18,805 bases of DNA from a virus. Numbering within the stretch: the first letter of the stretch is position 1; every line of letters starts with the position of its first letter. The DNA lies in UHGV virus genome UHGV-0261633, one strand, 5' to 3'. The translations under genes and the position numbers were made by a program. Below the pieces are notes generated by a model, which saw only the letters and a program-made list of their open reading frames with translations, did not search any database and was not told the origin of the DNA. Shown one piece after another: positions 1,297 to 18,805 of the stretch.

Positions 1297-1497
1297 TTAT
1301 TCAGAGTCTGTAGCAGTCTCTTCTTTCTTAACTTCGAACTTTGCATCAACAGCATCAAGAAGTGCATCCATAGATGCTTCTTTAATATCAATACCTGTTG
1401 CTACAGACAATCTGTCTGCAATTGCCATGATAGTATTCTGCATAAATTCTAGCTTTTTGTTAGCTTCATAAAGTTCTTTATAAACGGTCTCGCTCAT
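1297..1497 (-). CDS. hypothetical protein (66 aa) directly upstream of terL
   Basis: ORF track; GGAG RBS about 9 nt upstream of ATG; stop 22 nt before the terL start. Confidence 0.5.
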   Translation of the reverse strand: MSETVYKELYEANKKLEFMQNTIMAIADRLSVATGIDIKEASMDALLDAVDAKFEVKKEETATDSE

Positions 1498-1727: not shown

Positions 1728-1803
1728 TGGAGAATCCGAAGGGACTCGAACCCTTATAAACCTGTTTTGCAGACAGGCACATAGCCATTTCTGTCACGGA
1801 TTC
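1728..1803 (-). tRNA. tRNA-Cys (anticodon GCA)
   Basis: Hand fold: encoded CCA (tgg on + at 1728-1730), acceptor gaatccg/cggattc perfect, T-arm aaggg-actcgaa-ccctt, anticodon loop in tRNA sense CUGCAAA. Confidence 0.8.
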
Positions 1804-1807
1804 AAAT

Positions 1808-1900
1808 TGGAGGAAGATACCAGACTTGAACTGGTACACCGATTTCTCAGCTACTGGCAGTTTAGCAAACTGCTCCCTTACCTTTTAGGGTTAATCTTCC
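1808..1900 (-). tRNA. tRNA-Ser (anticodon GCU), type II
   Basis: Encoded CCA, acceptor ggaagat/atcttcc perfect, T-arm accag-acttgaa-ctggt, long variable arm, anticodon stem gcagt/actgc with loop UUGCUAA. Confidence 0.8.
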
Positions 1901-1902
1901 AT

Positions 1903-2637
1903 TTATTTCTGTAATGCGTTCTTCATTTCTGGTGTTGCAATAGTGTCAATTACACCAGTTTTACAAGCATCATCAAACCAGTCTGGTAAGATACCTGCTA
2001 AGAACCCATTGATATTCGTTTTAAGGTACTCTGCAATAAGGGCAGCTTCTTCTTCAATCATCTGCACAACTTCATCTGCATAAGCTGTAATCTTCGAGAT
2101 ACCTTCATTAATCTTACTAACAGCTTGGTTAGCTAAATCAGAAATAGTATCAAGACCTTTGTCAATAGCGTCTTGTAAGTCACTTAATACATCATTAACA
2201 CCGTCTAGTGCACTGTTAATCATATCAATAGCTTTTTGACCATACTCTGTAGCAACACCCATAATACCACTAAATGGTGTACAGCCAACTTGTTCACCTG
2301 CTGCACCCATAACATTAGAATAACCTTTTGCTACCTGCATACGTGATGAAAACTCATCAATGGACTTTTGACCGTAATCTGTCAGTGTTTTGGTAGTTGA
2401 TGTAGTGCTTGTCAGACTCGTGGTAAAGCTGTTAAGCAGAACTGTTGTAAGTCCAGCAGCAACAAGCTTATCCTTTACTGTAGGGTCTGATACAGAACTA
2501 ATAGAGCTTACAAGTGATGTAGAGGCAGCTACGGTTCCACCGAGAACTGCTGCACCAGTAATAAGGGGGTTAGAAAACCCTTTACCAGTTTTTAAGAGAT
2601 TAAAAATCTCCTTACCTTGTTCTGTCATCTCTTTCAT
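1903..2637 (-). CDS. hypothetical Ser/Thr-rich protein (~244 aa) embedded in the tRNA array
   Basis: ORF track 1903..2700, but the first 21 codons overlap tRNA-Phe and begin at a non-ATG codon; internal ATG at 2635-2637 has an AAGGTG RBS. Low-complexity S/T/A-rich N-terminal half. Confidence 0.55.
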   Translation of the reverse strand: MKEMTEQGKEIFNLLKTGKGFSNPLITGAAVLGGTVAASTSLVSSISSVSDPTVKDKLVAAGLTTVLLNSFTTSLTSTTSTTKTLTDYGQKSIDEFSSRMQVAKGYSNVMGAAGEQVGCTPFSGIMGVATEYGQKAIDMINSALDGVNDVLSDLQDAIDKGLDTISDLANQAVSKINEGISKITAYADEVVQMIEEEAALIAEYLKTNINGFLAGILPDWFDDACKTGVIDTIATPEMKNALQK

Positions 2638-2653
2638 TAAGCACCTTTGAAAT

Positions 2654-2730
2654 TGGTAGTCCAGTGGGATTTGAACCCTCTTCTCATGTTTTTCAGACAC
2701 GCGCTTTAACCATATAAGCTACTTGGACTA
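2654..2730 (-). tRNA. tRNA-Phe (anticodon GAA)
   Basis: Acceptor tagtcca/tggacta perfect, T-loop atttgaa (one mismatch in T-stem), anticodon loop CUGAAAA; 3' CCA encoding ambiguous. Confidence 0.7.
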
Positions 2731-2735
2731 TAAAT

Positions 2736-2811
2736 TGGGGTGACCTACGGGATTTGAACCCGTATAGACCATGTTCACAGCATGGGTCATTACCATTTAT
2801 GATAAGGCCAC
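2736..2811 (-). tRNA. tRNA-His (anticodon GUG)
   Basis: Encoded CCA, acceptor with one G-U, T-arm acggg-atttgaa-cccgt, anticodon stem ccatg/catgg with loop CUGUGAA. Confidence 0.8.
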
Positions 2812-2842
2812 ATTTAAGGACTCTCGTAAGAATCCTTAGAAG

Positions 2843-2918
2843 TGGCAGCGGCATAAGGATTTGAACCTTAATAAGACAGCTTCAGAGACTGCTGCATTGC
2901 CAGTTATGCTATACCGCT
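2843..2918 (-). tRNA. tRNA-Gln (anticodon CUG)
   Basis: Encoded CCA, T-arm taagg-atttgaa-cctta, D-arm gcat-tgccagtt-atgc, anticodon loop CUCUGAA. Confidence 0.75.
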
Positions 2919-2923
2919 AAATT

Positions 2924-3002
2924 TGGTACTCCATATCGGATTCGAACCGATACATAACACAGATTTTAAGTCTGGCCTCTCTGCCAATTGGAGTAATGGA
3001 GC
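2924..3002 (-). tRNA. tRNA with leucine anticodon UAA but type-I length (putative tRNA-Leu)
   Basis: Encoded CCA, discriminator A, acceptor actccat/atggagc (terminal G-U), T-arm atcgg-attcgaa-ccgat, anticodon loop CUUAAAA; about 7-nt variable loop, no long arm. Confidence 0.55.
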
Positions 3003-3004
3003 AT

Positions 3005-3080
3005 TGGCGGGGGATGTTGGAATTGAACCAACTTCTTCGATTTCAAAGACCGAGGTTTTAACCTTGTAAACTAATCCCCT
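3005..3080 (-). tRNA. tRNA-Gln (anticodon UUG)
   Basis: Encoded CCA, T-arm gttgg-aattgaa-ccaac, anticodon loop CUUUGAA. Confidence 0.75.
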
Positions 3081-3088
3081 TTAAATCT

Positions 3089-3646
3089 TTACTTTCTCAG
3101 TGGATGAATAAAGAATGCCAACATAACTCTTTCCCTTGAGAATGCTCTTTCTTCTGGGACAACACTTTTTAGCTTCCATCCAACATAAATTCTCCAGTAG
3201 AATTGTTTACCAAAGACTTTAATTGATGGGATAAAAGCGAATAATCCCCAAGCATTACTGTTCCACATTAGGAGATAACCTGTCTGATTATCTTCAGGGT
3301 CAGAACTTACGTTGATATTGCCTTTCCACTTAGTAACATCTTTTACATCTCTTCCTAACACATGGTAAGAGAAGTTATAAGCTTTGTTTCTCCAGAGCCA
3401 TCCAACTCTCTGCAAATAGACACCAAGCTTACCAATCTTTCTAATCTTAGCCCATCTTTTAACGTGACCTTCATCACCATCAATCGGGTTGTCATATGTC
3501 TCCATCCATCTGAATCCAAAAGGTAAGTGTCCTTTCTTCTCACTGTAAAATGGAACTACAAAAGGTGCTAAGATAACTGCTAAGATTGCTGCCAATGGTT
3601 CTAGCAAAGCTAAGAAAATCCATGAAGCATACTTCAAGTATCTCAT
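3089..3646 (-). CDS. hypothetical membrane protein (185 aa) embedded in the tRNA array
   Basis: ORF track; AGAGG RBS about 9 nt upstream; hydrophobic N-terminal segment IFLALLEPLAAILAVILAPFVVPF, Trp-rich remainder. Confidence 0.6.
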   Translation of the reverse strand: MRYLKYASWIFLALLEPLAAILAVILAPFVVPFYSEKKGHLPFGFRWMETYDNPIDGDEGHVKRWAKIRKIGKLGVYLQRVGWLWRNKAYNFSYHVLGRDVKDVTKWKGNINVSSDPEDNQTGYLLMWNSNAWGLFAFIPSIKVFGKQFYWRIYVGWKLKSVVPEERAFSRERVMLAFFIHPLRK

Positions 3647-3665
3647 TTAAATAGCCTCTTTAAAT

Positions 3666-3741
3666 TGGCGCAGGATAAGGGATTCGAACCCCTATTAACA
3701 GCTTCGTAGACTGTTGCTCTATCCATTTGAACTAATCCTGC
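3666..3741 (-). tRNA. tRNA-Arg (anticodon ACG)
   Basis: Encoded CCA, acceptor gcaggat/atcctgc perfect, T-arm aaggg-attcgaa-cccct, anticodon loop CUACGAA. Confidence 0.8.
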
Positions 3742-3855
3742 TTACCTACAAGAACACCATACAGTTTTTCACAAGAGTTGTTTTTACGCCTGTTTTTGAA
3801 TGACGCTATAAACTTTTTTGCAATTGATTTATTACTCATAGTGTTCTCCTAAAAT

Positions 3856-3933
3856 TGGTGTTCCAAGACGGATTCGAACCGTCACTAGTACAAGGTTTGA
3901 GCTTGCATCCTCTGCCAATTGGGATACTGGAAC
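3856..3933 (-). tRNA. tRNA with leucine anticodon CAA but type-I length (putative tRNA-Leu)
   Basis: Reverse complement GUUCCAG-UA-UCC..GGA-U-GCAAG-CUCAAAC-CUUGU-ACUAGU-GACGG-UUCGAAU-CCGUC-UUGGAAC-A-CCA; 6-nt variable loop, discriminator A. Confidence 0.55.
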
Positions 3934-3934
3934 A

Positions 3935-4009
3935 TGGTACTCACTAAAGGACTTGAACCTTTTTCTTCATCTTGTAAGGGTGATGTTTTACCATATAAAC
4001 TAAGCGAGT
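3935..4009 (-). tRNA. tRNA-Val (anticodon UAC)
   Basis: Encoded CCA, T-arm aaagg-acttgaa-ccttt, anticodon loop CUUACAA. Confidence 0.75.
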
Positions 4010-4011
4010 AT

Positions 4012-4102
4012 GAAAGAGGTCTGAAGTTGTGCCGCTAACTCAACTCCGTGGGATTTGTTACGGTCTTCAGTTGACTCAAAGCGGTCTTTCACTTGACCTC
4101 TA
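4012..4102 (-). ncRNA. tRNA-sized structured element without a canonical T-loop (possible tRNA-like RNA or degenerate tRNA)
   Basis: Outer stem agaggt (4015-4020) / acctct (4096-4101), inner stem ctgaag (4021-4026) / cttcag (4065-4070), internal hairpin ccgt..acgg (4046-4063); no GTTCGAAUC motif in either orientation. Strand not determined from sequence. Confidence 0.3.
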
Positions 4103-4105
4103 AAT

Positions 4106-4181
4106 TGGTGCTCCCACAAGGATTCGAACCCTGATAAGTTACTTACAAGGCAACCGTAATAGCCAATTATACGATAGGAGC
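4106..4181 (-). tRNA. tRNA-Thr (anticodon UGU)
   Basis: Reverse complement GCUCCUA-UC-GUAU-AAUUGGCUA-UUAC-G-GUUGC-CUUGUAA-GUAAC-..-CAGGG-UUCGAAU-CCUUG-UGGGAGC-A-CCA. Confidence 0.8.
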
Positions 4182-4188
4182 ATTAATT

Positions 4189-4263
4189 TGGAGCATCCAG
4201 AGGGAATCGAACCCTCAACCTCAGTTTGGAAGACTGTAATTTTCCCGTTTAAACTATGGATGC
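4189..4263 (-). tRNA. tRNA-Gly (anticodon UCC)
   Basis: Encoded CCA, acceptor gcatcca/tggatgc perfect, T-arm gaggg-aatcgaa-ccctc, anticodon loop CUUCCAA. Confidence 0.8.
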
Positions 4264-4269
4264 ACTAAT

Positions 4270-4345
4270 TGGTGGAGTCACCGAGAATTGAACTCGGTTC
4301 CCAAGTTTGCAAAACTCGAATTTTAACCATATAAACTATGACCCC
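4270..4345 (-). tRNA. tRNA-Ala (anticodon UGC)
   Basis: Encoded CCA, T-arm ccgag-aattgaa-ctcgg, anticodon loop UUUGCAA. Confidence 0.8.
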
Positions 4346-4351
4346 ATTGTT

Positions 4352-4427
4352 TGGTACAGGTGGAGGGAATTGAACCCATCGTCTTACTGATTAAGAGTCA
4401 GCCGCATAACCATTTTGCTACACCTGC
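4352..4427 (-). tRNA. tRNA-Lys (anticodon CUU)
   Basis: Encoded CCA, acceptor with terminal G-U, T-loop aattgaa (T-stem only 3 clean pairs), anticodon loop CUCUUAA; paralogous in outline to the tRNA at 5656-5731. Confidence 0.7.
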
Positions 4428-4434
4428 ATTAATT

Positions 4435-4512
4435 TGGTAGGAGACAAGGGATTCGAACCCTCAAACACCAACTTCTAAGGATGGTAGGTTTACCAATTAC
4501 CGTCAATCTCCC
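4435..4512 (-). tRNA. tRNA with leucine anticodon UAG but type-I length (putative tRNA-Leu)
   Basis: Encoded CCA, discriminator A, acceptor 7 pairs with two G-U, T-arm aaggg-attcgaa-ccctc, anticodon stem CCAUC/GUUGG (one mismatch) with loop CUUAGAA; D-arm poorly paired. Confidence 0.5.
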
Positions 4513-4593
4513 ATTAAATCTTTTTAGAGAACTTCTAAGAACCTAAGCAACAAGGTTCCACAACAAGCTGTAATAACCTTAGAAGCCCTCTAA

Positions 4594-4613
4594 AAAGACC
4601 TAAATAGGTCTTT
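4594..4613. other. AT-rich hairpin in array spacer (weak terminator-like)
   Basis: aaagacc-taaata-ggtcttt flanked by A/T runs; orientation and function unclear. Confidence 0.25.
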
Positions 4614-4767
4614 GCATAGTCTTGTTTAATCCGGTGACTAGAACCTTTGGAGAGCTTGATATTATCTCTTCTCCGTGACACCTACTAGGTGCTTTGACAG
4701 TGTACGACAATACACGAGGGATACCAAAGCAACATCCAAATGAAGCTTGGCTTTAAATCTTATTAGG

Positions 4768-4855
4768 CGGTAAGTAAAGGAGTCGAACCCTCACCGTATC
4801 TCTACAGTGGCAACTGTTTTCAAGACAGTTTGGCTACCATTAGCCGCTACCTACC
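4768..4855 (-). tRNA. tRNA-Ser (anticodon UGA), type II
   Basis: T-arm aaagg-agtcgaa-ccctc, ~20-nt variable region, anticodon stem actgt/acagt with loop CUUGAAA, acceptor ggtaagt/acctacc with one G-U; CCA apparently not encoded. Confidence 0.65.
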
Positions 4856-4868
4856 CCTAATAAGACTT

Positions 4869-4951
4869 TGGCATGGGACGGAGGAGTTGAACCCCTTTGA
4901 AACGGTTTTGGAGGCCGTTGCTCATGCCTTAGAGTCTTAACATCGTCCCAT
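4869..4951 (-). tRNA. tRNA-Trp (anticodon CCA)
   Basis: Encoded CCA, acceptor atgggac/gtcccat perfect, T-arm ggagg-agttgaa-cccct, anticodon loop CUCCAAA; D-region longer than canonical. Confidence 0.6.
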
Positions 4952-5093
4952 ATTATAATTCGAAGCTTACCCTGTTATCTCAACACTGTCAAGCTTCTTC
5001 TCAGATTATTTACATGTTCTGGAAAACATGAGATACAGACCACCTCCCTACAGGAAGACCCGCTAAGGCCGTCTAAGTAATCTGCTAACTATT

Positions 5094-5175
5094 TGGTCGA
5101 GGCGGCAGGACTCGAACCCGCATACTCCACTTACTCGGTTAACGGCGGTTTAGAAGACCGCTGAGATACGCCCCG
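5094..5175 (-). tRNA. tRNA-Arg-like (anticodon UCU) with non-canonical body
   Basis: Encoded CCA, acceptor cgaggcg/cgccccg, T-arm gcagg-actcgaa-cccgc, perfect anticodon arm GCGGU-CUUCUAA-ACCGC; but only 7 nt between acceptor and anticodon stem (no room for a D-arm) and 23 nt between anticodon and T arms. Confidence 0.45.
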
Positions 5176-5423
5176 TAATTATCTTTAAAGACTCTCTTAG
5201 AAAGCCCTTAAAGATGCCCACCTTATTAATCATACCGTGGGCGAGTACGCCAAATTCTTTAATGAGGGATTGGAAGACCTCACTGGTGTTTAGCCTATCA
5301 AGCTACTGCCAGAAAAACATTGTCGTTTGCATTTATTTTAAATTTGCAAAATAGACGCTACGCAACGAAAACTAAGGTTACTATAAAGTAGTCACATCTC
5401 AATGTCAACAACTTTATTGAAAT

Positions 5424-5498
5424 TGGTTGTAGGTGAGGGTATCGAACCCTCTTCTAACGGTTATCAGCCGTTTGCATTACCATTTATGCTAACCCACA
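5424..5498 (-). tRNA. tRNA-Ile (anticodon GAU)
   Basis: Encoded CCA, T-arm gaggg-tatcgaa-ccctc, D-arm gcat-taccattt-atgc, anticodon stem aacgg/ccgtt with loop CUGAUAA. Confidence 0.8.
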
Positions 5499-5500
5499 AT

Positions 5501-5577
5501 TGGAGGTTCAGATGGGAATCGAACCCACATTCATAGGGCTTATGAAACCCCTGCATTACCTTATCTGCGACTGAACC
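5501..5577 (-). tRNA. tRNA-Met (anticodon CAU), elongator-like acceptor
   Basis: Encoded CCA, acceptor ggttcag/ctgaacc perfect, T-arm atggg-aatcgaa-cccac, anticodon stem GGGGU/GCCCU with loop UUCAUAA. Confidence 0.7.
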
Positions 5578-5655
5578 AGAATAAGTACCCTAGTTAGAGA
5601 AACTGTTGAGTGGGTGTTTCCAGCCGCGCAGGTGTTTCTCAGTTAAGGGTGAATT

Positions 5656-5731
5656 TGGTAGAAGTGGAGGGATTCGAACCCATCGCCTGTCAGATTAAAA
5701 GTCTGCCGCATCACCATTCTGCTACACTTCC
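5656..5731 (-). tRNA. tRNA-Lys (anticodon UUU)
   Basis: Encoded CCA, acceptor with terminal G-U, T-loop attcgaa, anticodon loop CUUUUAA. Confidence 0.7.
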
Positions 5732-5736
5732 ATTAA

Positions 5737-5876
5737 ATTATCTTTGTAGATAAGCTACCCAGACTTGCTTAAGGTCTGTAGCGATGTGCCTTTTGGGTTT
5801 AAATCTAGAATTTACCCTTCACCCTTTGTGGTCGCATACTCACAGGTAAGCTTAATAACTTATCTACAAAGATAAT
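5737..5876. repeat. 18-bp perfect inverted repeat flanking a 104-bp ORF-free segment
   Basis: attatctttgtagataag (5737-5754) is the exact reverse complement of cttatctacaaagataat (5859-5876). Confidence 0.85.
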
Positions 5877-5920
5877 TACCAGACCGTTGTTTATCATCTT
5901 AAGTGCTACCATTACACCAA

Positions 5921-5975
5921 CTCGACATCTGCCGAGTGAAGGAATCGAACCTTCGCCTTTTCTTTACCGGAGAAA
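5921..5975 (-). other. tRNA fragment-like element (canonical T-arm plus one hairpin, no matching acceptor 5' strand)
   Basis: T-arm gaagg-aatcgaa-ccttc (5938-5954) and hairpin tttct-ttaccgg-agaaa (5958-5974); no complementary acceptor strand found downstream. Confidence 0.3.
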
Positions 5976-5990
5976 TAGATTGTTTAAGTT

Positions 5991-6018
5991 TTGCTGTAAA
6001 CGGTCTTCTGTAAATTTG
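5991..6018. repeat. 28-bp exact direct repeat, copy 1 (ttgctgtaaacggtcttctgtaaatttg)
   Basis: Identical 28-mer at 6471-6498; degenerate copies at about 6078-6097 and 6638-6658. Confidence 0.85.
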
Positions 6019-6130
6019 TTGAGCCAGACCAAGTTTTAAATTTTCAAAATTAAATTGGCTTGAAATTTCATACATTCTTGCTGTATTTGGTCTTCTGCTC
6101 CTTTAAAGAATACTCGTAAGAACTCTTTAA

Positions 6131-6153
6131 GGGAGGGGCTAAATAGCCCTCTC
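6131..6153. other. GC-rich hairpin gggaggggct-aaat-agccctctc
   Basis: Shares the 15-mer ggggctaaatagccc with a hairpin at 18364-18378. Confidence 0.5.
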
Positions 6154-6158
6154 AAAAT

Positions 6159-6235
6159 TGGCGGCTACGATGAGACTTGAACTCACATCATCTCCCGTGA
6201 CAGGGGAGTATTTTCTCCAGTTAAACTACATAGCC
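6159..6235 (-). tRNA. tRNA-Asp (anticodon GUC)
   Basis: Encoded CCA, T-arm atgag-acttgaa-ctcac, anticodon stem ctccc/gggag perfect with loop CUGUCAC. Confidence 0.8.
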
Positions 6236-6240
6236 TTTAT

Positions 6241-6328
6241 TGGTGTGCCGTGTAGGAGTCGAACCTACCGAGTCTCAATGACAAGGGATTTACAGTCCCC
6301 ACCGCTACCATCTACGGGATAACGACAC
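6241..6328 (-). tRNA. tRNA-Tyr (anticodon GUA), type II
   Basis: Encoded CCA, T-arm gtagg-agtcgaa-cctac, ~15-nt variable region, anticodon loop CUGUAAA. Confidence 0.75.
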
Positions 6329-6336
6329 ATTTAATT

Positions 6337-6413
6337 TGGCGGTTAGTCAGGGATTCGAACCCTGTGCCATTCGCTTAACAGGCGACCGCACATACCTTAT
6401 GTGCTTCCTAACC
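6337..6413 (-). tRNA. tRNA-Asn (anticodon GUU)
   Basis: Encoded CCA, T-arm caggg-attcgaa-ccctg, D-arm gcac-ataccttat-gtgc, anticodon loop CUGUUAA. Confidence 0.75.
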
Positions 6414-6470
6414 ATGTTTAGTATTACCAGACCGTATCTTTCAATTTTTCCGCTAAAAATTTAATAAGTA

Positions 6471-6498
6471 TTGCTGTAAACGGTCTTCTGTAAATTTG
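6471..6498. repeat. 28-bp exact direct repeat, copy 2, abutting the 3' end of a tRNA-Met gene
   Basis: Identical to 5991-6018. Confidence 0.85.
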
Positions 6499-6573
6499 GA
6501 GGCGGGTGCAGGAGTCGAACCTGCCGATACCATGCTAATGAGACATGTGAGACGCCCTTTCTCTATACCCGCA
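6497..6573 (-). tRNA. tRNA-Met (anticodon CAU), possibly initiator-type or tRNA-Ile2
   Basis: Encoded CCA, T-arm gcagg-agtcgaa-cctgc perfect, anticodon stem CAUGU/GCAUG with loop CUCAUUA, D-arm gaga-cgccctt-tctc; position 1-72 appears unpaired. Confidence 0.65.
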
Positions 6574-6664
6574 ATTCTTAATGACCAGACCAAATCTCTT
6601 CTTTGTCCGATTTACCTTCAGATGAATAAGATTAAGTTTGCTGTAATTGGTCTTCTGTCAAAAC

Positions 6665-6742
6665 TGGCGTTCCAGAAGGGATTTGAACCCTCAAATATCC
6701 ACTTTGAAAGAGTGGTGACTTTACCATTTTGTCTACTGGAAC
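6665..6742 (-). tRNA. tRNA-Glu (anticodon UUC)
   Basis: Encoded CCA, acceptor gttccag/ctggaac perfect, T-arm aaggg-atttgaa-ccctc, anticodon stem ccact/agtgg with loop CUUUCAA. Confidence 0.8.
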
Positions 6743-6749
6743 ATTAATT

Positions 6750-6826
6750 TGGTCTCTGTTGGAGGACTTGAACCTCCGGCCTTACCGCCCCAAACGGAAC
6801 GCTCTACCAAGCTGAGCTAAACAGAG
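6750..6826 (-). tRNA. tRNA-Pro (anticodon UGG)
   Basis: Encoded CCA, acceptor ctctgtt/aacagag perfect, T-arm ggagg-acttgaa-cctcc, D-arm gctc-taccaagct-gagc, anticodon loop UUUGGGG. Confidence 0.8.
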
Positions 6827-6991: not shown

Positions 6992-8407
6992 TTACCAGAT
7001 ATAACGGTCAATCATTACTGCTTTGAGCATTACGCTGATTGGGTCAAACTTCTCACCACTAAGCAGAGCTTTTAAAGTGGCTGGAGAGAAACCAGATACC
7101 ATTGCTACACCGTTATCCTTAACAGATACTTCGCAAGTACCATTACGGTTTGCTAAGTACCAGAATACCAGTTGTGGCATCTCATATCCAGCTTTTTTGT
7201 ACTTACTCTGAATTGCTTCAAAGTTTGTACGACCGTTAGCTCCATCAACCTGATTGAACTCCATATCGGAGAAGATGATAAGCTTACTTGGCATATCTTT
7301 CTGAGTCAAGTTGTTTCTTTTACCTGTTTCAAGAATGCGGTCAAAAGCTGCTTGTAAGTTAGTTGAGCCATATTCAACGTGTCGCATCACCTGACGATGA
7401 CGGTTTCGTAAATCACCACTCAGTTCGATGAAGTGAGGGTTTGTCGAATAAACCATCAACTCATTCTTAAAGCAACCTGTATTGCGTTCTGCTACATACA
7501 AGGCAAGTGATACACCAATATCCAGAGCAGTAATGGAGCCAAAATTCACCCAAGACATTGAACTTGATACATCAGACATACACAAGATGTTTTCACCTTC
7601 TGCCATCCAGTTTGGTAGTGCTTTCCACTGCTCATTAGCAACATCTGCATTACCATACTTGACAGATTTAATCACATCGTATGGGTAAACAGCACCAGCG
7701 TTAATCTTAGTCTCACCTTTTGATAAGGACTCGATGTAAGCTTTGTAACGCTCTCCATCTTTACGGTTAAACAGTTTTTGGTAACGTGCAGCAGCAAGTG
7801 AAGGAATCTTACTGTAGTCAATCTTACCAAACTCATTAGCAGAGATTTTTTGCTCAACTGTATCAGATAGTGCAGACAACAGTGTGCGGTACTCTTTCTC
7901 ACTCAAGTTGGCAAACTTGCAGAAACGTTTTACAAACTGCTTATGACGTGGTTTGACTCGTGGTAACCACTTAGCCGCCAAACCTGCTGTTGCAGGGTCT
8001 AGTAATGCTGCTTCTAAATGTTTGAAGGCATCTGTCTCGAAACGAGTACCTACGAAGATTTTGAAGTCATCAAAACGACCAAGTTCTGCAATCTTATCCA
8101 TAATGCGAAGAACCTGTGTAGGCTCTAAAACTTTATCTTCAATTGCTTGAAGCAAAACAGTTCTGAAGGCTTTACGCTCACCCATACCTTCTCGTACATC
8201 TCGCATATGCAGTAAAATACGAACTGCAACATCAACATCCTCACGCAAAGCTTTGTAGAACAGGTCTGGTAAGATTTCTACATTGCTACGGCTTGAACCA
8301 GCAGCTTTGTAAAAGTCTACAAGAGCAGACATTGATGAAGTATGGTTTACAGCACCATTTTCAGTTCGACCTGCATGAAGGTGCGCATGTTTAAATAATT
8401 CGCTCAT
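6992..8407 (-). CDS. von Willebrand factor A (vWA/MIDAS) domain protein, 471 aa, with ~270-aa helical N-terminal domain
   Basis: ORF track; C-terminal half has a DxSxS MIDAS motif (ILCMSDVSSSMS) and a vWA-like hhhhSD motif (KLIIFSDMEFNQ); GAGAG RBS. Domain call is from motif recognition only. Confidence 0.8.
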   Translation of the reverse strand: MSELFKHAHLHAGRTENGAVNHTSSMSALVDFYKAAGSSRSNVEILPDLFYKALREDVDVAVRILLHMRDVREGMGERKAFRTVLLQAIEDKVLEPTQVLRIMDKIAELGRFDDFKIFVGTRFETDAFKHLEAALLDPATAGLAAKWLPRVKPRHKQFVKRFCKFANLSEKEYRTLLSALSDTVEQKISANEFGKIDYSKIPSLAAARYQKLFNRKDGERYKAYIESLSKGETKINAGAVYPYDVIKSVKYGNADVANEQWKALPNWMAEGENILCMSDVSSSMSWVNFGSITALDIGVSLALYVAERNTGCFKNELMVYSTNPHFIELSGDLRNRHRQVMRHVEYGSTNLQAAFDRILETGKRNNLTQKDMPSKLIIFSDMEFNQVDGANGRTNFEAIQSKYKKAGYEMPQLVFWYLANRNGTCEVSVKDNGVAMVSGFSPATLKALLSGEKFDPISVMLKAVMIDRYIW

Positions 8408-8860: not shown

Positions 8861-9035
8861 TGGTATGCCTCTTATAAGACCTCTTAAAAGGCTTTTAAGA
8901 TAAAAGATAGATATCCAGAAAGATATCTGTTTAAATAGCCTTTTTAGAGGAACCTTTTAAGTTATCTTCTAAGTATTTATAAGCCTACACCTTGTCAAGT
9001 ACTTTGTCAACAACTTTTTTAACTTGCAATAGTTC

Positions 9036-9064
9036 TTGACTTGTTGTATGGATTACTGTACCAT
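9036..9064 (+). promoter_or_regulatory. candidate sigma70-like promoter for the plus-strand gene block
   Basis: TTGACT (9036-9041), 17-nt spacer, TACCAT (9059-9064), in the divergent intergenic region 8861-9109. Confidence 0.3.
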
Positions 9065-9109
9065 CTTACTTAAAGCTGTAGGTCTGCCTTGTTCTACAAA
9101 GGAGACTTA

Positions 9110-16182: not shown

Positions 16183-16731
16183 ATGGAAAAAGATAACTTA
16201 AAAGAAGTTGAAGGTAACTACCTAGTCCTTGACTGGAATGATATTCGTGGAGCACTCTACGAAGAAAGCCTTAATAGGTTAGAACAAATTATCTTTGCAG
16301 TACGGGGTTACAGAGAGGTTCAAAATGGTAAAGACCCACTTGAAGGAATCTTTGTAGAGAAGTCTTATCCGTTCTATGAAGACACTTTGCAGAAAGTTAA
16401 GATGCACTTTAAACAGAAGAACCGTAAAGTGGTCACTATGGTATCTCTTGGTGGACAGAGTATGTCTGTGATGGAAGATATCAACCCTAAGAGACCGAGT
16501 AAAGGCGTTTGTATAAAAATCACAGGTCATGAAGAGTATATCTCAGTAGATGACTTTAGAGCATTCTGTAGTGGTTCTTGTGTCTTTAATGGTTTTCACT
16601 ATGATATCCGAGTGTACCCAATCAAGGGAGATGATATCATGATGCAGGTATTCGATAATAACAATGGATTTACTCATTTTTATCAGACAACCAAGTCATC
16701 ATTGAAAACAGTTCTGGAAACACTGATTTAA
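16183..16731 (+). CDS. hypothetical protein (182 aa from internal ATG; ORF opens at 16138)
   Basis: ORF track 16138..16731; start uncertain (16138 overlaps upstream gene by 32 nt). Confidence 0.6.
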   Translation: MEKDNLKEVEGNYLVLDWNDIRGALYEESLNRLEQIIFAVRGYREVQNGKDPLEGIFVEKSYPFYEDTLQKVKMHFKQKNRKVVTMVSLGGQSMSVMEDINPKRPSKGVCIKITGHEEYISVDDFRAFCSGSCVFNGFHYDIRVYPIKGDDIMMQVFDNNNGFTHFYQTTKSSLKTVLETLI

Positions 16732-16742
16732 AATATCTTAAG

Positions 16743-16766
16743 AGCCTCCTTAATCGGGGGCTTTTT
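16743..16766 (+). terminator. rho-independent terminator closing the plus-strand gene block
   Basis: agcctcc-ttaatc-gggggct then ttttt. Confidence 0.75.
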
Positions 16767-16835
16767 AATTTTTATAAAATTTATCGGTTGTCCCAACCGC
16801 TGGGTCACCATCATATGTGAATAAAATATCTACCC

Positions 16836-17850
16836 TTCTTAACAACCTTCTTAATCTTACTCTCTATATAGTTATATAGTACTATATAGTATCTTAGTAT
16901 CTATCTAGTGGTCTTAATAGCCCCTCTGTATAGTCCTTCTAAACACTCTTCTAACAAGCCTTCTTAACAACCTATACAATCACCTTAACCATACCTCTAC
17001 ACCCTCTTAGAAGCCCCTATACACCTCTTAATCTCTAGGTTAGCTATGTTACCCTCTATAGGTGTTCACTAGGTACTACTAAACCTCTATATAGACTGTT
17101 TTAACAAACTTAACAGGAATATCTTCACAGACCTTATCTCACAAGGTCTAACACGGTACTAACAAGGTATCTTATAAGCCTGTTATTACCTGTATTTTTA
17201 AAAGACTGTATAGGTAATTATTCAGAATTTTAAAATTTTTATAAAATAGGGCTATCAAGTCATTTTTTAGGGTCTTTGAAGGAACTGAAAAATATCTGTA
17301 GAAGATGTATATCTGCTTGGTAGCCCTTAACAGCCCCCTTACAAGTACTTTGCAAAATTTTAAAATATCCTTAACAATCTCTTAACAGCTACTACAGCCT
17401 CTTAACATCTCTTCAGAGGTCTTAACAGATTCTTAACAGAACTAACAAGGTTGTAACAAGTTCTTAACAGTCGATACATGGTCTTTACAGAGTCTTAACA
17501 GATGACTAACAAGAGCTAACAAGTTAATTTTTAAGAGTTATTTTGTTAAGATAATTAACAAGTCTCTAACAAGTGTTTAATCTTTTTAACAAGCTATTAA
17601 CATGGTCACTACTCTTTTCTTATCGTTCCCTTTGCTTCTTAGTGATTCTTTAAACATACCTCTTAAAAGCTCTCTATAGCTCCTTGTAAGCTCTTTTAAG
17701 TCTCTTCCTAGTATTTACCCCCCAACTGTACAGATAGCTCTTTATAGGGCTTTACAGGAGCTTTTAAGGCTATGTCAAAGACTCTTACAAGGCTTTTACG
17801 TGGTCTTAACAGAGATTTAACAAGGGGCTAACAAGTTGCTAACAAGTGCC
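16836..17850. repeat. array of short direct repeats (core TTAACAR / CTAACAAG), iteron-like
   Basis: At least 20 copies by eye, e.g. 17381, 17401, 17421, 17433, 17442, 17453, 17463, 17494, 17506, 17516, 17555, 17566, 17586, 17805, 17817, 17828, 17839; many spacings of 9-12 bp; no ORF of 60 aa or more in any frame across 16732-18380. Confidence 0.75.
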
Positions 17851-18324
17851 TTAAAAGCATAACTATGTAGGGTTTGTTAAGAAATTGTTAAGAAAATGTT
17901 AAGGGGGCTAGCATTTACGTAACTTTTAAGCTACTTCAAAGTAACTTTATAGCCCCTATAACATACTTTAAAGGAACTACCAAGCCCTTTTTAGTAGTTC
18001 ACAAGAATACTAACGAGATGATAAAGCTTACACCCTTATAAGATTCTTCTAAGGCTCTGGGAAGCTCTATAAAGGGCTTTTTAGAGTGGGTTAATGCAAT
18101 CCCTTAAGTTAGGTTGATAAGGCTGTTATAGGGCTTTATAGAGCGTTTAAATGGTTGCCCTTCCCTTTCGGGTTATGGGCTTTTATTTAAGTTGATTTGA
18201 TAAGAGGTTATAGAGTAGACTATAGAGTTATTGCTTTTAAGGTACGGGATAGATTCTATCGAATTAGTGGGATAGATTCTGGAAAGGGAAGGGAAAGGGT
18301 TGTATAGAGGCTATTACAGAGACG

Positions 18325-18351
18325 TAAAAAAGCCCCTATGAGAAAGGGGCT
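18325..18351 (-). terminator. rho-independent terminator (minus strand) downstream of the 82-aa gene
   Basis: agcccct-atgagaa-aggggct preceded on + by aaaaaa, giving a U-tract on the minus strand. Confidence 0.7.
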
Positions 18352-18363
18352 GTAAAGGTATCT

Positions 18364-18379
18364 GGGGCTAAATAGCCCC
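18364..18379. other. GC hairpin ggggc-taaata-gcccc
   Basis: Shares the 15-mer ggggctaaatagccc with 6136-6150. Confidence 0.5.
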
Positions 18380-18389
18380 GTTGCGTCGA

Positions 18390-18638
18390 TTAGTTGTAAC
18401 CTTGTTTGCTGTAGTACAGAGAGATAATCAAGTCACCCCAATAATGGTAATGATATTCATCGTTCAACGCCTCTTTTACTGCATCTTTCCAGAAGTCATC
18501 AGTAGGGTTATAGTCTGGGATAACTTGTTTAATGACCGTCTTCACCAGTTCGAAACACTCATCAGTCCCGCCTATATCAAATTTAACGTCCAGAGTGTAG
18601 CAGCCATAAGAATTTACAATTGCGCGGATAGTTGCCAT
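18390..18638 (-). CDS. hypothetical acidic protein (82 aa)
   Basis: ORF track; GGAGA RBS about 9 nt upstream; terminator downstream on same strand; the overlapping + ORF 18381..18665 looks non-protein-like. Confidence 0.55.
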   Translation of the reverse strand: MATIRAIVNSYGCYTLDVKFDIGGTDECFELVKTVIKQVIPDYNPTDDFWKDAVKEALNDEYHYHYWGDLIISLYYSKQGYN

Positions 18639-18805
18639 TTTTTGAATCTCCAGTTTAGGAAGTAGTTTAAGGGTTTTATTTAGTGGGGAAGGTCATCCCC
18701 TCCCCGTTGATTAGTAATTTACTGCATATTGGCGTAGGTTGCAAGCCTTTTTTCGTTGTATTTTGTCAGAATTTCACAAGATAGAACATCGTACTTTGTA
18801 ACCGC

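Follow-up and report, generated by a model that had tools for sequence, protein, structure and literature searches.

The DNA analysed here is an 18,805-nucleotide (nt) stretch of the virus genome UHGV-0261633, hereafter the window, which derives from a Felix O1-like myophage (Felixounavirus). At 17215-17365 it carries two AT-rich tracts that an earlier reading of the sequence (the original prediction) took for a possible DNA-unwinding element beside an array of iterons. We propose, with a probability of about one half, that both tracts are conserved cis-elements of a genome-end (concatemer-junction) module rather than the unwinding element of an iteron origin. We favour this reading because the tracts flank one boundary of a direct terminal repeat (DTR), because this boundary and the cores of the tracts are among the most conserved sequences, with the noncoding DNA conserved far above the adjacent protein, and because the density of TAACA sites is unique to the termini genome-wide, the sites being phased at 10.4 bp and the boundary motif being inverted. 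The elements concerned are as follows, with a slash marking a repeat boundary.

16732-18389 (1,658 nt): gene-free terminal region, with no open reading frame (ORF) of at least 50 residues, conserved at least to the degree of the flanking genes.
17223-17247: AT tract 1, 8% GC, 72-96 nt outside the left DTR boundary, with its core TAAAATTTTTATAAAATAG at 17231-17249; main predicted opening site of the region.
17306-17332, + strand: left-boundary block TGTATATCTGCTT/GGTAGCCCTTAACA, invariant, containing the motif TAGCCCTTAACA (17321-17332).
17319-17908: inferred DTR of 590 bp, assigned by homology to relatives; it would lie at both ends of the virion DNA and once per concatemer junction.
17326-17846, + strand: array of TAACA-type sites (CTTAACAG / CTAACAAG); the DTR contains 20 of the TAACA cores, which have a phasing of 10.3-10.4 bp.
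17348-17370: AT tract 2 (subterminal box CTTTGCAAAATTTTAAAATATCC), 30-52 nt inside the DTR.
17866-17922, - strand: right-boundary block, conserved, with three inverted TGTTAAG at 11-bp spacing, then GGGGGC/TAG.

That Felix O1-like phages possess a DTR has been reported before. PhageTerm analysis of the relative Pr103Blw reported DTR packaging with terminal repeats of 581 bp (PMC8303462), and DTR packaging was also reported by PhageTerm for other Felixounaviruses (PMC11737134). The GenBank record of Pr103Blw annotates terminal repeats at both ends; upon joining these ends and aligning them to the window, the repeat maps to 17319-17908. Exact terminal duplications are present in Pr103Blw (581 bp), ZX4221 (591 bp), ECP2307 (592 bp) and SeKF_63 (613 bp). 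All four have identical ends, GGTAGCCCTTAACA... and ...GTTAAGGGGGC, in records that come from independent groups and in both orientations, and further phage records begin or end at window 17319/17320 or 17908. Moreover, Erwinia phage M7 (Kolesnikvirus) has an exact terminal duplication of 444 bp, the boundary of which is conserved to within 2 nt of the homologous position, beside a likewise conserved GTATATCTRC. Judged by this homology, the “repeat array” of the window is a direct terminal repeat, because the exact terminal duplications of four relatives map to 17319-17908.

The repeats within the DTR are sites with a core of 7-8 bp (CTTAACAG / CTAACAAG), at spacings of 9-11, 20, 31 and so on. 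The gene-free region holds 28 TAACA cores, at a density of 16.9 per kb compared to 1.75 per kb elsewhere; 20 of them fall within the DTR. In the complete 88-kb genome of Pr103Blw, the terminal 500-nt bins are the densest of the genome, with 9-19 TAACA/TGTTA cores against a mean of 1.9. The phasing reaches R=0.84 for 16 sites, compared to 0.60 at the 95th percentile for random positions. All 20 cores are in phase over 520 bp and therefore lie on one face of the helix, an arrangement that, by analogy with known systems, suggests a cooperative protein filament or a wrapped complex. In addition, the motif TAGCCC(CC)TTAACA occurs at both boundaries in inverted orientation, at 17321-17332 (+) and, as TAGCCCCCTTAACA, at 17897-17910 (-); therefore both physical DNA ends, read inward, start alike. 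A perfect palindrome, TTACGTAA, is found at 17915-17922, just outside the DTR. Intrinsic curvature was also considered, using the periodicity of AA/TT/TA/AT as a proxy; the 11-bp power of 7.9 in the DTR is barely above the coding maximum of 7.3, and we make no claim of curvature.

Besides the TAACA-type sites, a second motif family occupies the middle of the DTR (17650-17800) at a spacing of ~10-11 nt, comprising GCTCTTTTAAG, CTCTATAG, CTTTATAGG and CTTTACAGG. The unique part to the right of the DTR (18040-18320) is filled with related G-rich inverted versions of these motifs. Because of the mid-DTR motifs and their inverted versions to the right, the GC skew changes sign over the region, from -0.5 to +0.48.

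Sequence comparison demonstrated that the region as a whole is conserved, with the tract cores among its most conserved stretches. More than 250 records of Felixounavirus, Suspvirus and Mooglevirus align to the gene-free region, with identities of about 77-95% (~92% for Felix O1-like records). In Suspvirus and Mooglevirus, the adjacent 197-residue protein is merely 50-56% identical, whereas the gene-free DNA is ~77-83% identical. Our conservation alignment comprises 31 distinct sequences from three genera. As 27 of the loci were fetched via a 23-nt pattern spanning the left boundary, the invariance of 17310-17332 is partly by construction; the invariance of the left boundary is independently seen in 10 relatives derived from BLAST. 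The mean conservation is 0.85 for the gene-free region and 0.88 for the DTR. Blocks of at least 14 nt at 95% conservation or more are located at 17141-17158, 17160-17183, 17231-17249, 17306-17332, 17537-17552 and 18032-18048, and ~55 nt at the right boundary are also among the most conserved stretches.

Two conserved stretches concern the AT tracts themselves. The right half of tract 1 (TAAAATTTTTATAAAATAG, 17231-17249) is invariant in the 31 sequences. Around tract 2, which also contains TAAAATATC, positions 17348-17369 are nearly invariant, and CTTTGCA and TTTAAAATATC are invariant throughout. The palindromic symmetry, by contrast, is not kept: the left half of tract 1 varies, T-to-C or other changes break tract 2 in many relatives, and in phage CHB7 a 29-bp insertion in the middle of tract 1 (window 17232) splits the palindrome and brings in a 7-bp inverted repeat of its own.

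The 197-residue flanking protein, tried as an anchor to distant relatives, is confined to the same three genera; the phages of Erwinia and Pectobacterium were reached by distant BLASTN of the DNA itself. The box of tract 2 is retained in both, as CCTTTGCAAAATCTTAACATATC followed by CTCTTAACAG repeats in Erwinia phage Ea21-4 and as GTGCAAAATTTTAAAATATC in Pectobacterium phage Arno18. At the position of tract 1, Ea21-4 has a different yet A/T-only run, TTCTATTTTTTAAAAATTAA, and Arno18 keeps AATTTTTATA. As seen in these alignments, the constraint on tract 2 is sequence-specific, base by base rather than compositional, and that on tract 1 is compositional and, within three close genera, sequence-specific. 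Altogether, the comparison shows the tracts to be under strong purifying selection, and this conservation is the strongest evidence against their chance origin.

Two further observations concern the right side of the gene-free region. CHB7 carries a 44-bp duplication of a TTTACGTAAC unit just outside the right boundary (window 17911). A direct repeat of GGGATAGATTCT, in two copies at 18246-18257 and 18269-18280, lies in the sole poorly conserved patch of the gene-free region (0.25 at 18250-18279).

The segments quoted in the original prediction are present, with coordinates right to within 1-2 nt: cagaattttaaaatttttataaaat corresponds to 17223-17247 and caaaattttaaaatatcc to 17353-17370. The densest repeats indeed lie just downstream, the dense array starting at 17370. 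As for the palindrome, the 11-mer AATTTTAAAAT is exact in both tracts (17226-17236 and 17356-17366), but the true perfect palindromes are ATTTTAAAAT (10 bp), present in both tracts, and AATTTTAAAATT (12 bp), present only in tract 1. Counting this near-palindrome on both strands, the shared 11-mer is marginally unexpected, with six matches at no more than one mismatch compared to 1.9 expected; 5 of 200 shuffles reach six. The palindromes as such count for little. Tract 2 proper (17353-17370) lies 35-52 nt inside the DTR, in a three-turn gap between TAACA-type sites, and has a GC content of 17%, compared to 8% for tract 1 and 39% for the window.

The two tracts differ in their predicted melting. 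When all 30-mers of the 18.8 kb are ranked by nearest-neighbour duplex stability, starting from the least stable, 17218-17247 comes second (top 0.04%) and 17355-17384 about tenth. The full 151-nt span has a GC content of 29% and stands out less, falling in the top 2.9% at 150 nt. We further applied a simplified Benham-type superhelical model, an approximate treatment with a single open run, AT/GC copolymer energies and the stretch taken as a closed domain. In this model, 17178-17265 dominates opening in domains of 3-4.5 kb, with p of 0.83-0.97 at a superhelical density (sigma) of -0.05 to -0.06 (~0.95 at -0.055), and it is also the dominant opening site across the whole window at sigma -0.04. 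The homologue of tract 1 is the top or co-top opening site in the junction domains of 9 of 12 relatives, Ea21-4 included. The same model predicts no opening at tract 2. The description of the tracts as easily melted is thus borne out for tract 1, and the refuting condition of the original prediction, a region no more AT-rich or unstable than the noncoding DNA around it, does not apply to this tract. A further island competes with tract 1 for opening:

17521-17570: second AT-rich island, inside the DTR, competing opening site, holding the invariant block GTTATTTTGTTAAGAT (17537-17552).

Other AT-rich sequences of the gene-free region deserve mention. The least stable 30- and 50-mer of the window is a tandem (C)TATATAGT block of about 3-5 copies at 16863-16909, the conservation of which is 0.96 and the homologue of which is likewise the least stable in a whole relative genome. 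In the relative KhF2, the predicted opening site is the area of the homologue of 16863-16909, not tract 1. Each tract also has a counterpart close to where the last + strand gene terminates (3' end): TTAAAATATC of tract 2 (17360-17369) recurs at 16728-16737, where it overlaps the stop codon of that gene, and AATTTTTATAAAAT of the tract 1 core (17234-17247) recurs at 16767-16780, after the + strand terminator. Moreover, AAAATATC occurs four times, always on the + strand and confined to the gene-free region.

In the genome-end reading, a phage DNA-binding protein (small terminase or equivalent) would polymerise on the phased TAACA sites and bring the terminase nuclease to the boundary motif at either edge of the repeat. 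As the two copies of this motif are inverted, the nicks would fall on opposite strands, ~590 bp apart, and strand-displacement synthesis from them would duplicate the repeat, following the T7-type model. Tract 2 would belong to a sequence-specific recognition site beside the cut, and tract 1 would provide local melting or flexibility that aids strand separation, or the loading of a helicase or polymerase, at the left boundary. We infer the cutting of the boundaries by terminase, and the duplication of the repeat in packaging, from the inverted motif and by analogy with the T7-type model. A candidate for the putative TAACA-binding protein is the product of a 66-residue ORF at 1297-1497 (-), which lies immediately upstream of the large-terminase gene (itself running off the window start), in the usual position of a small-terminase gene.

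Several points weigh against the genome-end reading. The DTR of this phage itself is assigned by homology only, and the position of the cut relative to the inverted motif differs by ~4 nt between the two boundaries. At the right boundary, the window sequence has no AT tracts comparable to those on the left. The distance between tract 1 and the left boundary is variable: several relatives carry a 28-bp insertion (TTGATTCGGTAGAATCTACCTCATG...) at window 17303, between tract 1 and the boundary and 16 nt outside the latter, and in Ea21-4 the distance is ~160-190 nt, which speaks against a fixed structural coupling of tract 1 to the cut. What we propose tract 1 to do in particular is conjectural, and the 66-residue ORF matches only phrog_4397, of unknown function, with no Pfam family and no recognisable domain. 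Finally, these features are equally compatible with a promoter or with an origin activated by transcription.

A sigma-70 promoter at tract 2 is unlikely, though we do not consider it negligible. Its TAAAAT, together with an upstream TTAACA-like hexamer, would lie ~20-48 bp from the DNA end and direct transcription inward, with a mirror site on the - strand directing it outward; the product would be a noncoding RNA, or the act of transcribing would have a use in DNA entry, in packaging or in activating an origin, and tract 1 would be UP-like or -10-like. Two such sites overlie tract 2, CTTACA-N17-TAAAAT (+, 17338-17366) and TTAAGA-N17-TAAAAT (-, 17385-17357), each with a 9/12 match, and where relatives differ in sequence, TTAACA or GTAACA still stands at N17 from TAAAAT. 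At the homologous place, inspection by eye finds TTAACC-N17-TAACAT in Ea21-4 and TTTACC-N16-TAAAAT in Arno18; a TTAACA-like hexamer at N16-17 from TAAAAT or TAACAT recurs in four genera. In T7, promoters lie beside the terminal repeat, and pausing of RNA polymerase at the junction starts packaging (PMC3276506).

Nevertheless, promoter-like sites are no commoner here than in shuffled sequences (8 compared to 6.5+/-3.0, all at 9/12). Conservation is also higher in the spacer (CTTTGCA...) than in the -35 hexamer, a pattern unusual in promoters and suggestive of a site bound by protein. Nor is there an obvious product to express: the ORF scan of 16732-18380 found none of at least 50 residues, and an Rfam scan of 16500-18805 at E<=1 found no family, with only a sub-threshold Phe-leader match over a terminator. 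The small “hypothetical proteins” annotated in the gene-free region of some records are not credible. In addition, inward transcripts would enter the convergent genes antisense. The searchable literature yielded no transcription-start data for the genus.

Distinctly unlikely, in our view, is a replication origin in which tract 1 is the unwinding element and the neighbouring repeats, or a T7-style promoter at tract 2, trigger opening and the loading of primase-helicase. Several observations speak for it: tract 1 is the dominant local predicted opening site; 9 of 12 relatives preserve its tendency to melt, even with diverged sequence; the three least stable 30-mers of a whole 88-kb relative genome all fall within the terminal region; and 1.66 kb of conserved noncoding DNA exceeds the need of a cut site. 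The secondary origins of T7 (phiOL and phiOR) consist of a promoter and AT-rich regions near the ends. If tract 1 truly is an unwinding element, packaging and replication initiation would be linked at the genome end.

However, the classic layout of an AT-rich tract beside iterons, as originally predicted, is not supported. The repeats are those of the DTR, with ~20 cores of 7-8 bp phased at 10.4 bp, not a few iterons of 17-22 bp, usually about two turns apart. No recognisable initiator gene adjoins them: the proteins encoded on either side belong to no Pfam family, and the PHROGs that they match are all of unknown function, which leaves room for an unrecognised initiator. The DnaA box TTATCCACA is at chance level, with six occurrences at no more than one mismatch compared to 5.8 expected and one of them in the region, and the integration host factor (IHF) consensus WATCAANNNNTTR has no match. 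In Pr103Blw, the genes for the polymerase and the primase-helicase are found 47-55 kb away from the end. Next to the former, an AT-rich divergent intergenic region ranks as the least stable 100-mer genome-wide and is predicted to open just as strongly (p 0.99). Strong predicted opening sites recur every 5-10 kb in that genome, in most 5-kb domains, and melting is therefore not diagnostic of an origin. The cumulative GC skew of Pr103Blw tracks gene orientation only, and the exact invariance of 19 nt in the tract 1 core exceeds the requirement of a compositional unwinding element. A literature search for the origin of Felix O1 found nothing relevant.

The genome-end, promoter and origin roles need not be mutually exclusive, as the T7 precedent illustrates. 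In a combined scheme, which we regard as improbable, the genome end would double as a transcription-activated origin: tract 2 would be a promoter for the host polymerase that fires outward across the boundary into tract 1, ~100 nt away, and opens it for a T7-like primase-helicase. Replication initiation, repeat duplication and packaging would then share one protein filament over ~20 TAACA sites phased at 10.4 bp, an arrangement conserved across Ounavirinae.

We give very little weight to the possibility that the palindromes form a cruciform or hairpin serving as a processing intermediate in terminal-repeat duplication. T7 offers a parallel, as Chung, Nardone and Hinkle reportedly described in 1990 a hairpin end ~190 bp from its right end; here, the palindrome of tract 1 lies 72-96 nt outside the repeat boundary, and the CHB7 insertion has its own inverted repeat. 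Against it, the hairpin energies of the two tracts are no better than those of shuffled sequences (z = -0.04 and +0.90), and the folding of both boundaries is likewise no better; the palindromes are merely 10-12 bp of pure A/T, and in relatives, substitutions and an insertion disrupt their symmetry, with one half remaining invariant. Equally hard to credit is that the tracts are ordinary AT-rich intergenic DNA without function, with palindromes arising by chance from A/T-only composition: the marginal 11-mer, the hairpin potential at chance level and the similarly stable AT-rich islands in other intergenic regions would suit it, but it is effectively refuted by the conservation data, in which a 19-nt block and ~20 further nt are invariant in 31 sequences and partly kept in two further lineages, beside a neighbouring protein of ~50% identity.

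Returning to the genome-end reading, the closest known kind of element would be, by analogy, the T7-type concatemer junction. Similar to the T7/T3 junction, the region has a short direct terminal repeat with fixed ends in noncoding DNA, with repeats, promoter-like sites and AT tracts alongside; the ends of T7 likewise bring together the terminal repeat, promoters and packaging signals, its left end comprising the repeat and promoters, and its junction is where packaging starts (PMC3276506; PMC13236587). They differ in that the present phage is a myovirus without a phage RNA polymerase, has a repeat of ~590 bp compared to 160 bp in T7, fills this repeat with short helically phased repeats and has both flanking clusters transcribed toward the ends. 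The terminal region shares no sequence similarity with T7.

The packaging sites lambda cos, P1 pac and SPP1 pac contain clusters of short repeats bound by terminase, together with a bend or an IHF site by the cut. The present region resembles them in having multiple short sites, a conserved cut site and a nearby AT-rich element, a combination in keeping with the mechanism proposed above. It differs in lacking an IHF consensus, in lacking GATC, which P1 pac has, and in the far larger number of sites (about 24); moreover, its ends are a duplicated 590-bp repeat, compared to the cohesive or headful ends of the cos and pac systems. The centromere parC of plasmid R1, of the ParR type, consists of tandem 11-bp iterons. 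Like it, the DTR has many short sites one helical turn apart on one face, a resemblance only: this is a lytic phage with no partition genes in the window or in the annotation of Pr103Blw, and the sites are located at the genome ends.

Compared to iteron origins (lambda ori, plasmid oriV and oriC), the region shares a melt-prone AT tract beside direct repeats, and differs in a 7-8-bp core recurring every 10.4 bp in ~20 copies, the absence of an adjacent initiator gene and of IHF sites, and the identity of the repeats as genome termini. Finally, the long terminal repeats of Twort-like phages (Herelleviridae) are bracketed by 12-bp inverted repeats (PMC7596081). In both cases the same short motif, inverted, marks the two repeat boundaries; however, the Twort-like repeat is ~8 kb and carries genes, whereas the present one is 590 bp, gene-free and filled with phased sites, and the motifs are unrelated.

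Felix O1-like phages are in wide use for the typing, biocontrol and therapy of Salmonella and E. coli, with Bas63 emerging as a model for engineering. Their terminal repeat has so far been annotated only as a coordinate range in a few records, and we found no description of its internal anatomy (the phased TAACA array, the subterminal boxes, the melt-prone tract and the inverted boundary motif) in searchable papers. Mapping the “iterons and AT tract” to the DTR averts a false origin annotation, and the exact conserved boundary sequences can be used to orient and trim Ounavirinae assemblies. The invariant boxes at 17231-17249, 17306-17332, 17348-17369 and 17866-17911 are targets for studying how a short-repeat myovirus recognises and duplicates its ends.

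The gene-free region corresponds to the junction of genes 23 and 24 in Felix O1 numbering and is flanked by convergent gene clusters, each capped by a terminator:

16740-16765, + strand: intrinsic terminator of the + strand gene cluster, also annotated in the relative KhF2.
18331-18351, - strand: intrinsic terminator of the - strand gene cluster.

The remainder of the window holds 25 tRNA genes, the gene of a Ro60-like RNA-binding protein, tail genes, an endolysin gene and genes of unknown function; no replication genes are among the genes of the 18.8-kb window. The tRNA cluster (1728-6826, -) lies directly downstream of the gene of the Ro60-like protein (471 residues, phrog_850; 6992-8407, -). 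In a knockout study of Bas63, the Ro60-like protein was proposed as a partner of tRNA-like Y RNAs, countering the ppl defence system; the intergenic terminal region was not among the targets of that screen.

Another intergenic region of the window, 8861-9088, is divergent and equivalent to that between Felix O1 genes 40 and 41. It is AT-rich, with 8883-8982 among the least stable 100-mers, and contains 12-nt tandem repeats and -35-like hexamers (TTGTCAA/TTGACTT); it is probably the start of two late operons. The tetranucleotide GATC is absent both from the 18.8-kb window (Markov expectation ~58) and from the 88.4-kb genome of Pr103Blw (expectation ~297), which suggests strong selection against Dam, MutH, SeqA or GATC-cutting restriction enzymes; CATG, CTAG and CCGG are depleted too, far less than GATC. 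In addition, Felix O1-like sequence of ~86-89% protein identity is found in GU169904 (Staphylococcus phage SA1, 147 kb) and MG969406 (a 109-kb Salmonella phage), both of which are probably mixed or chimeric assemblies.

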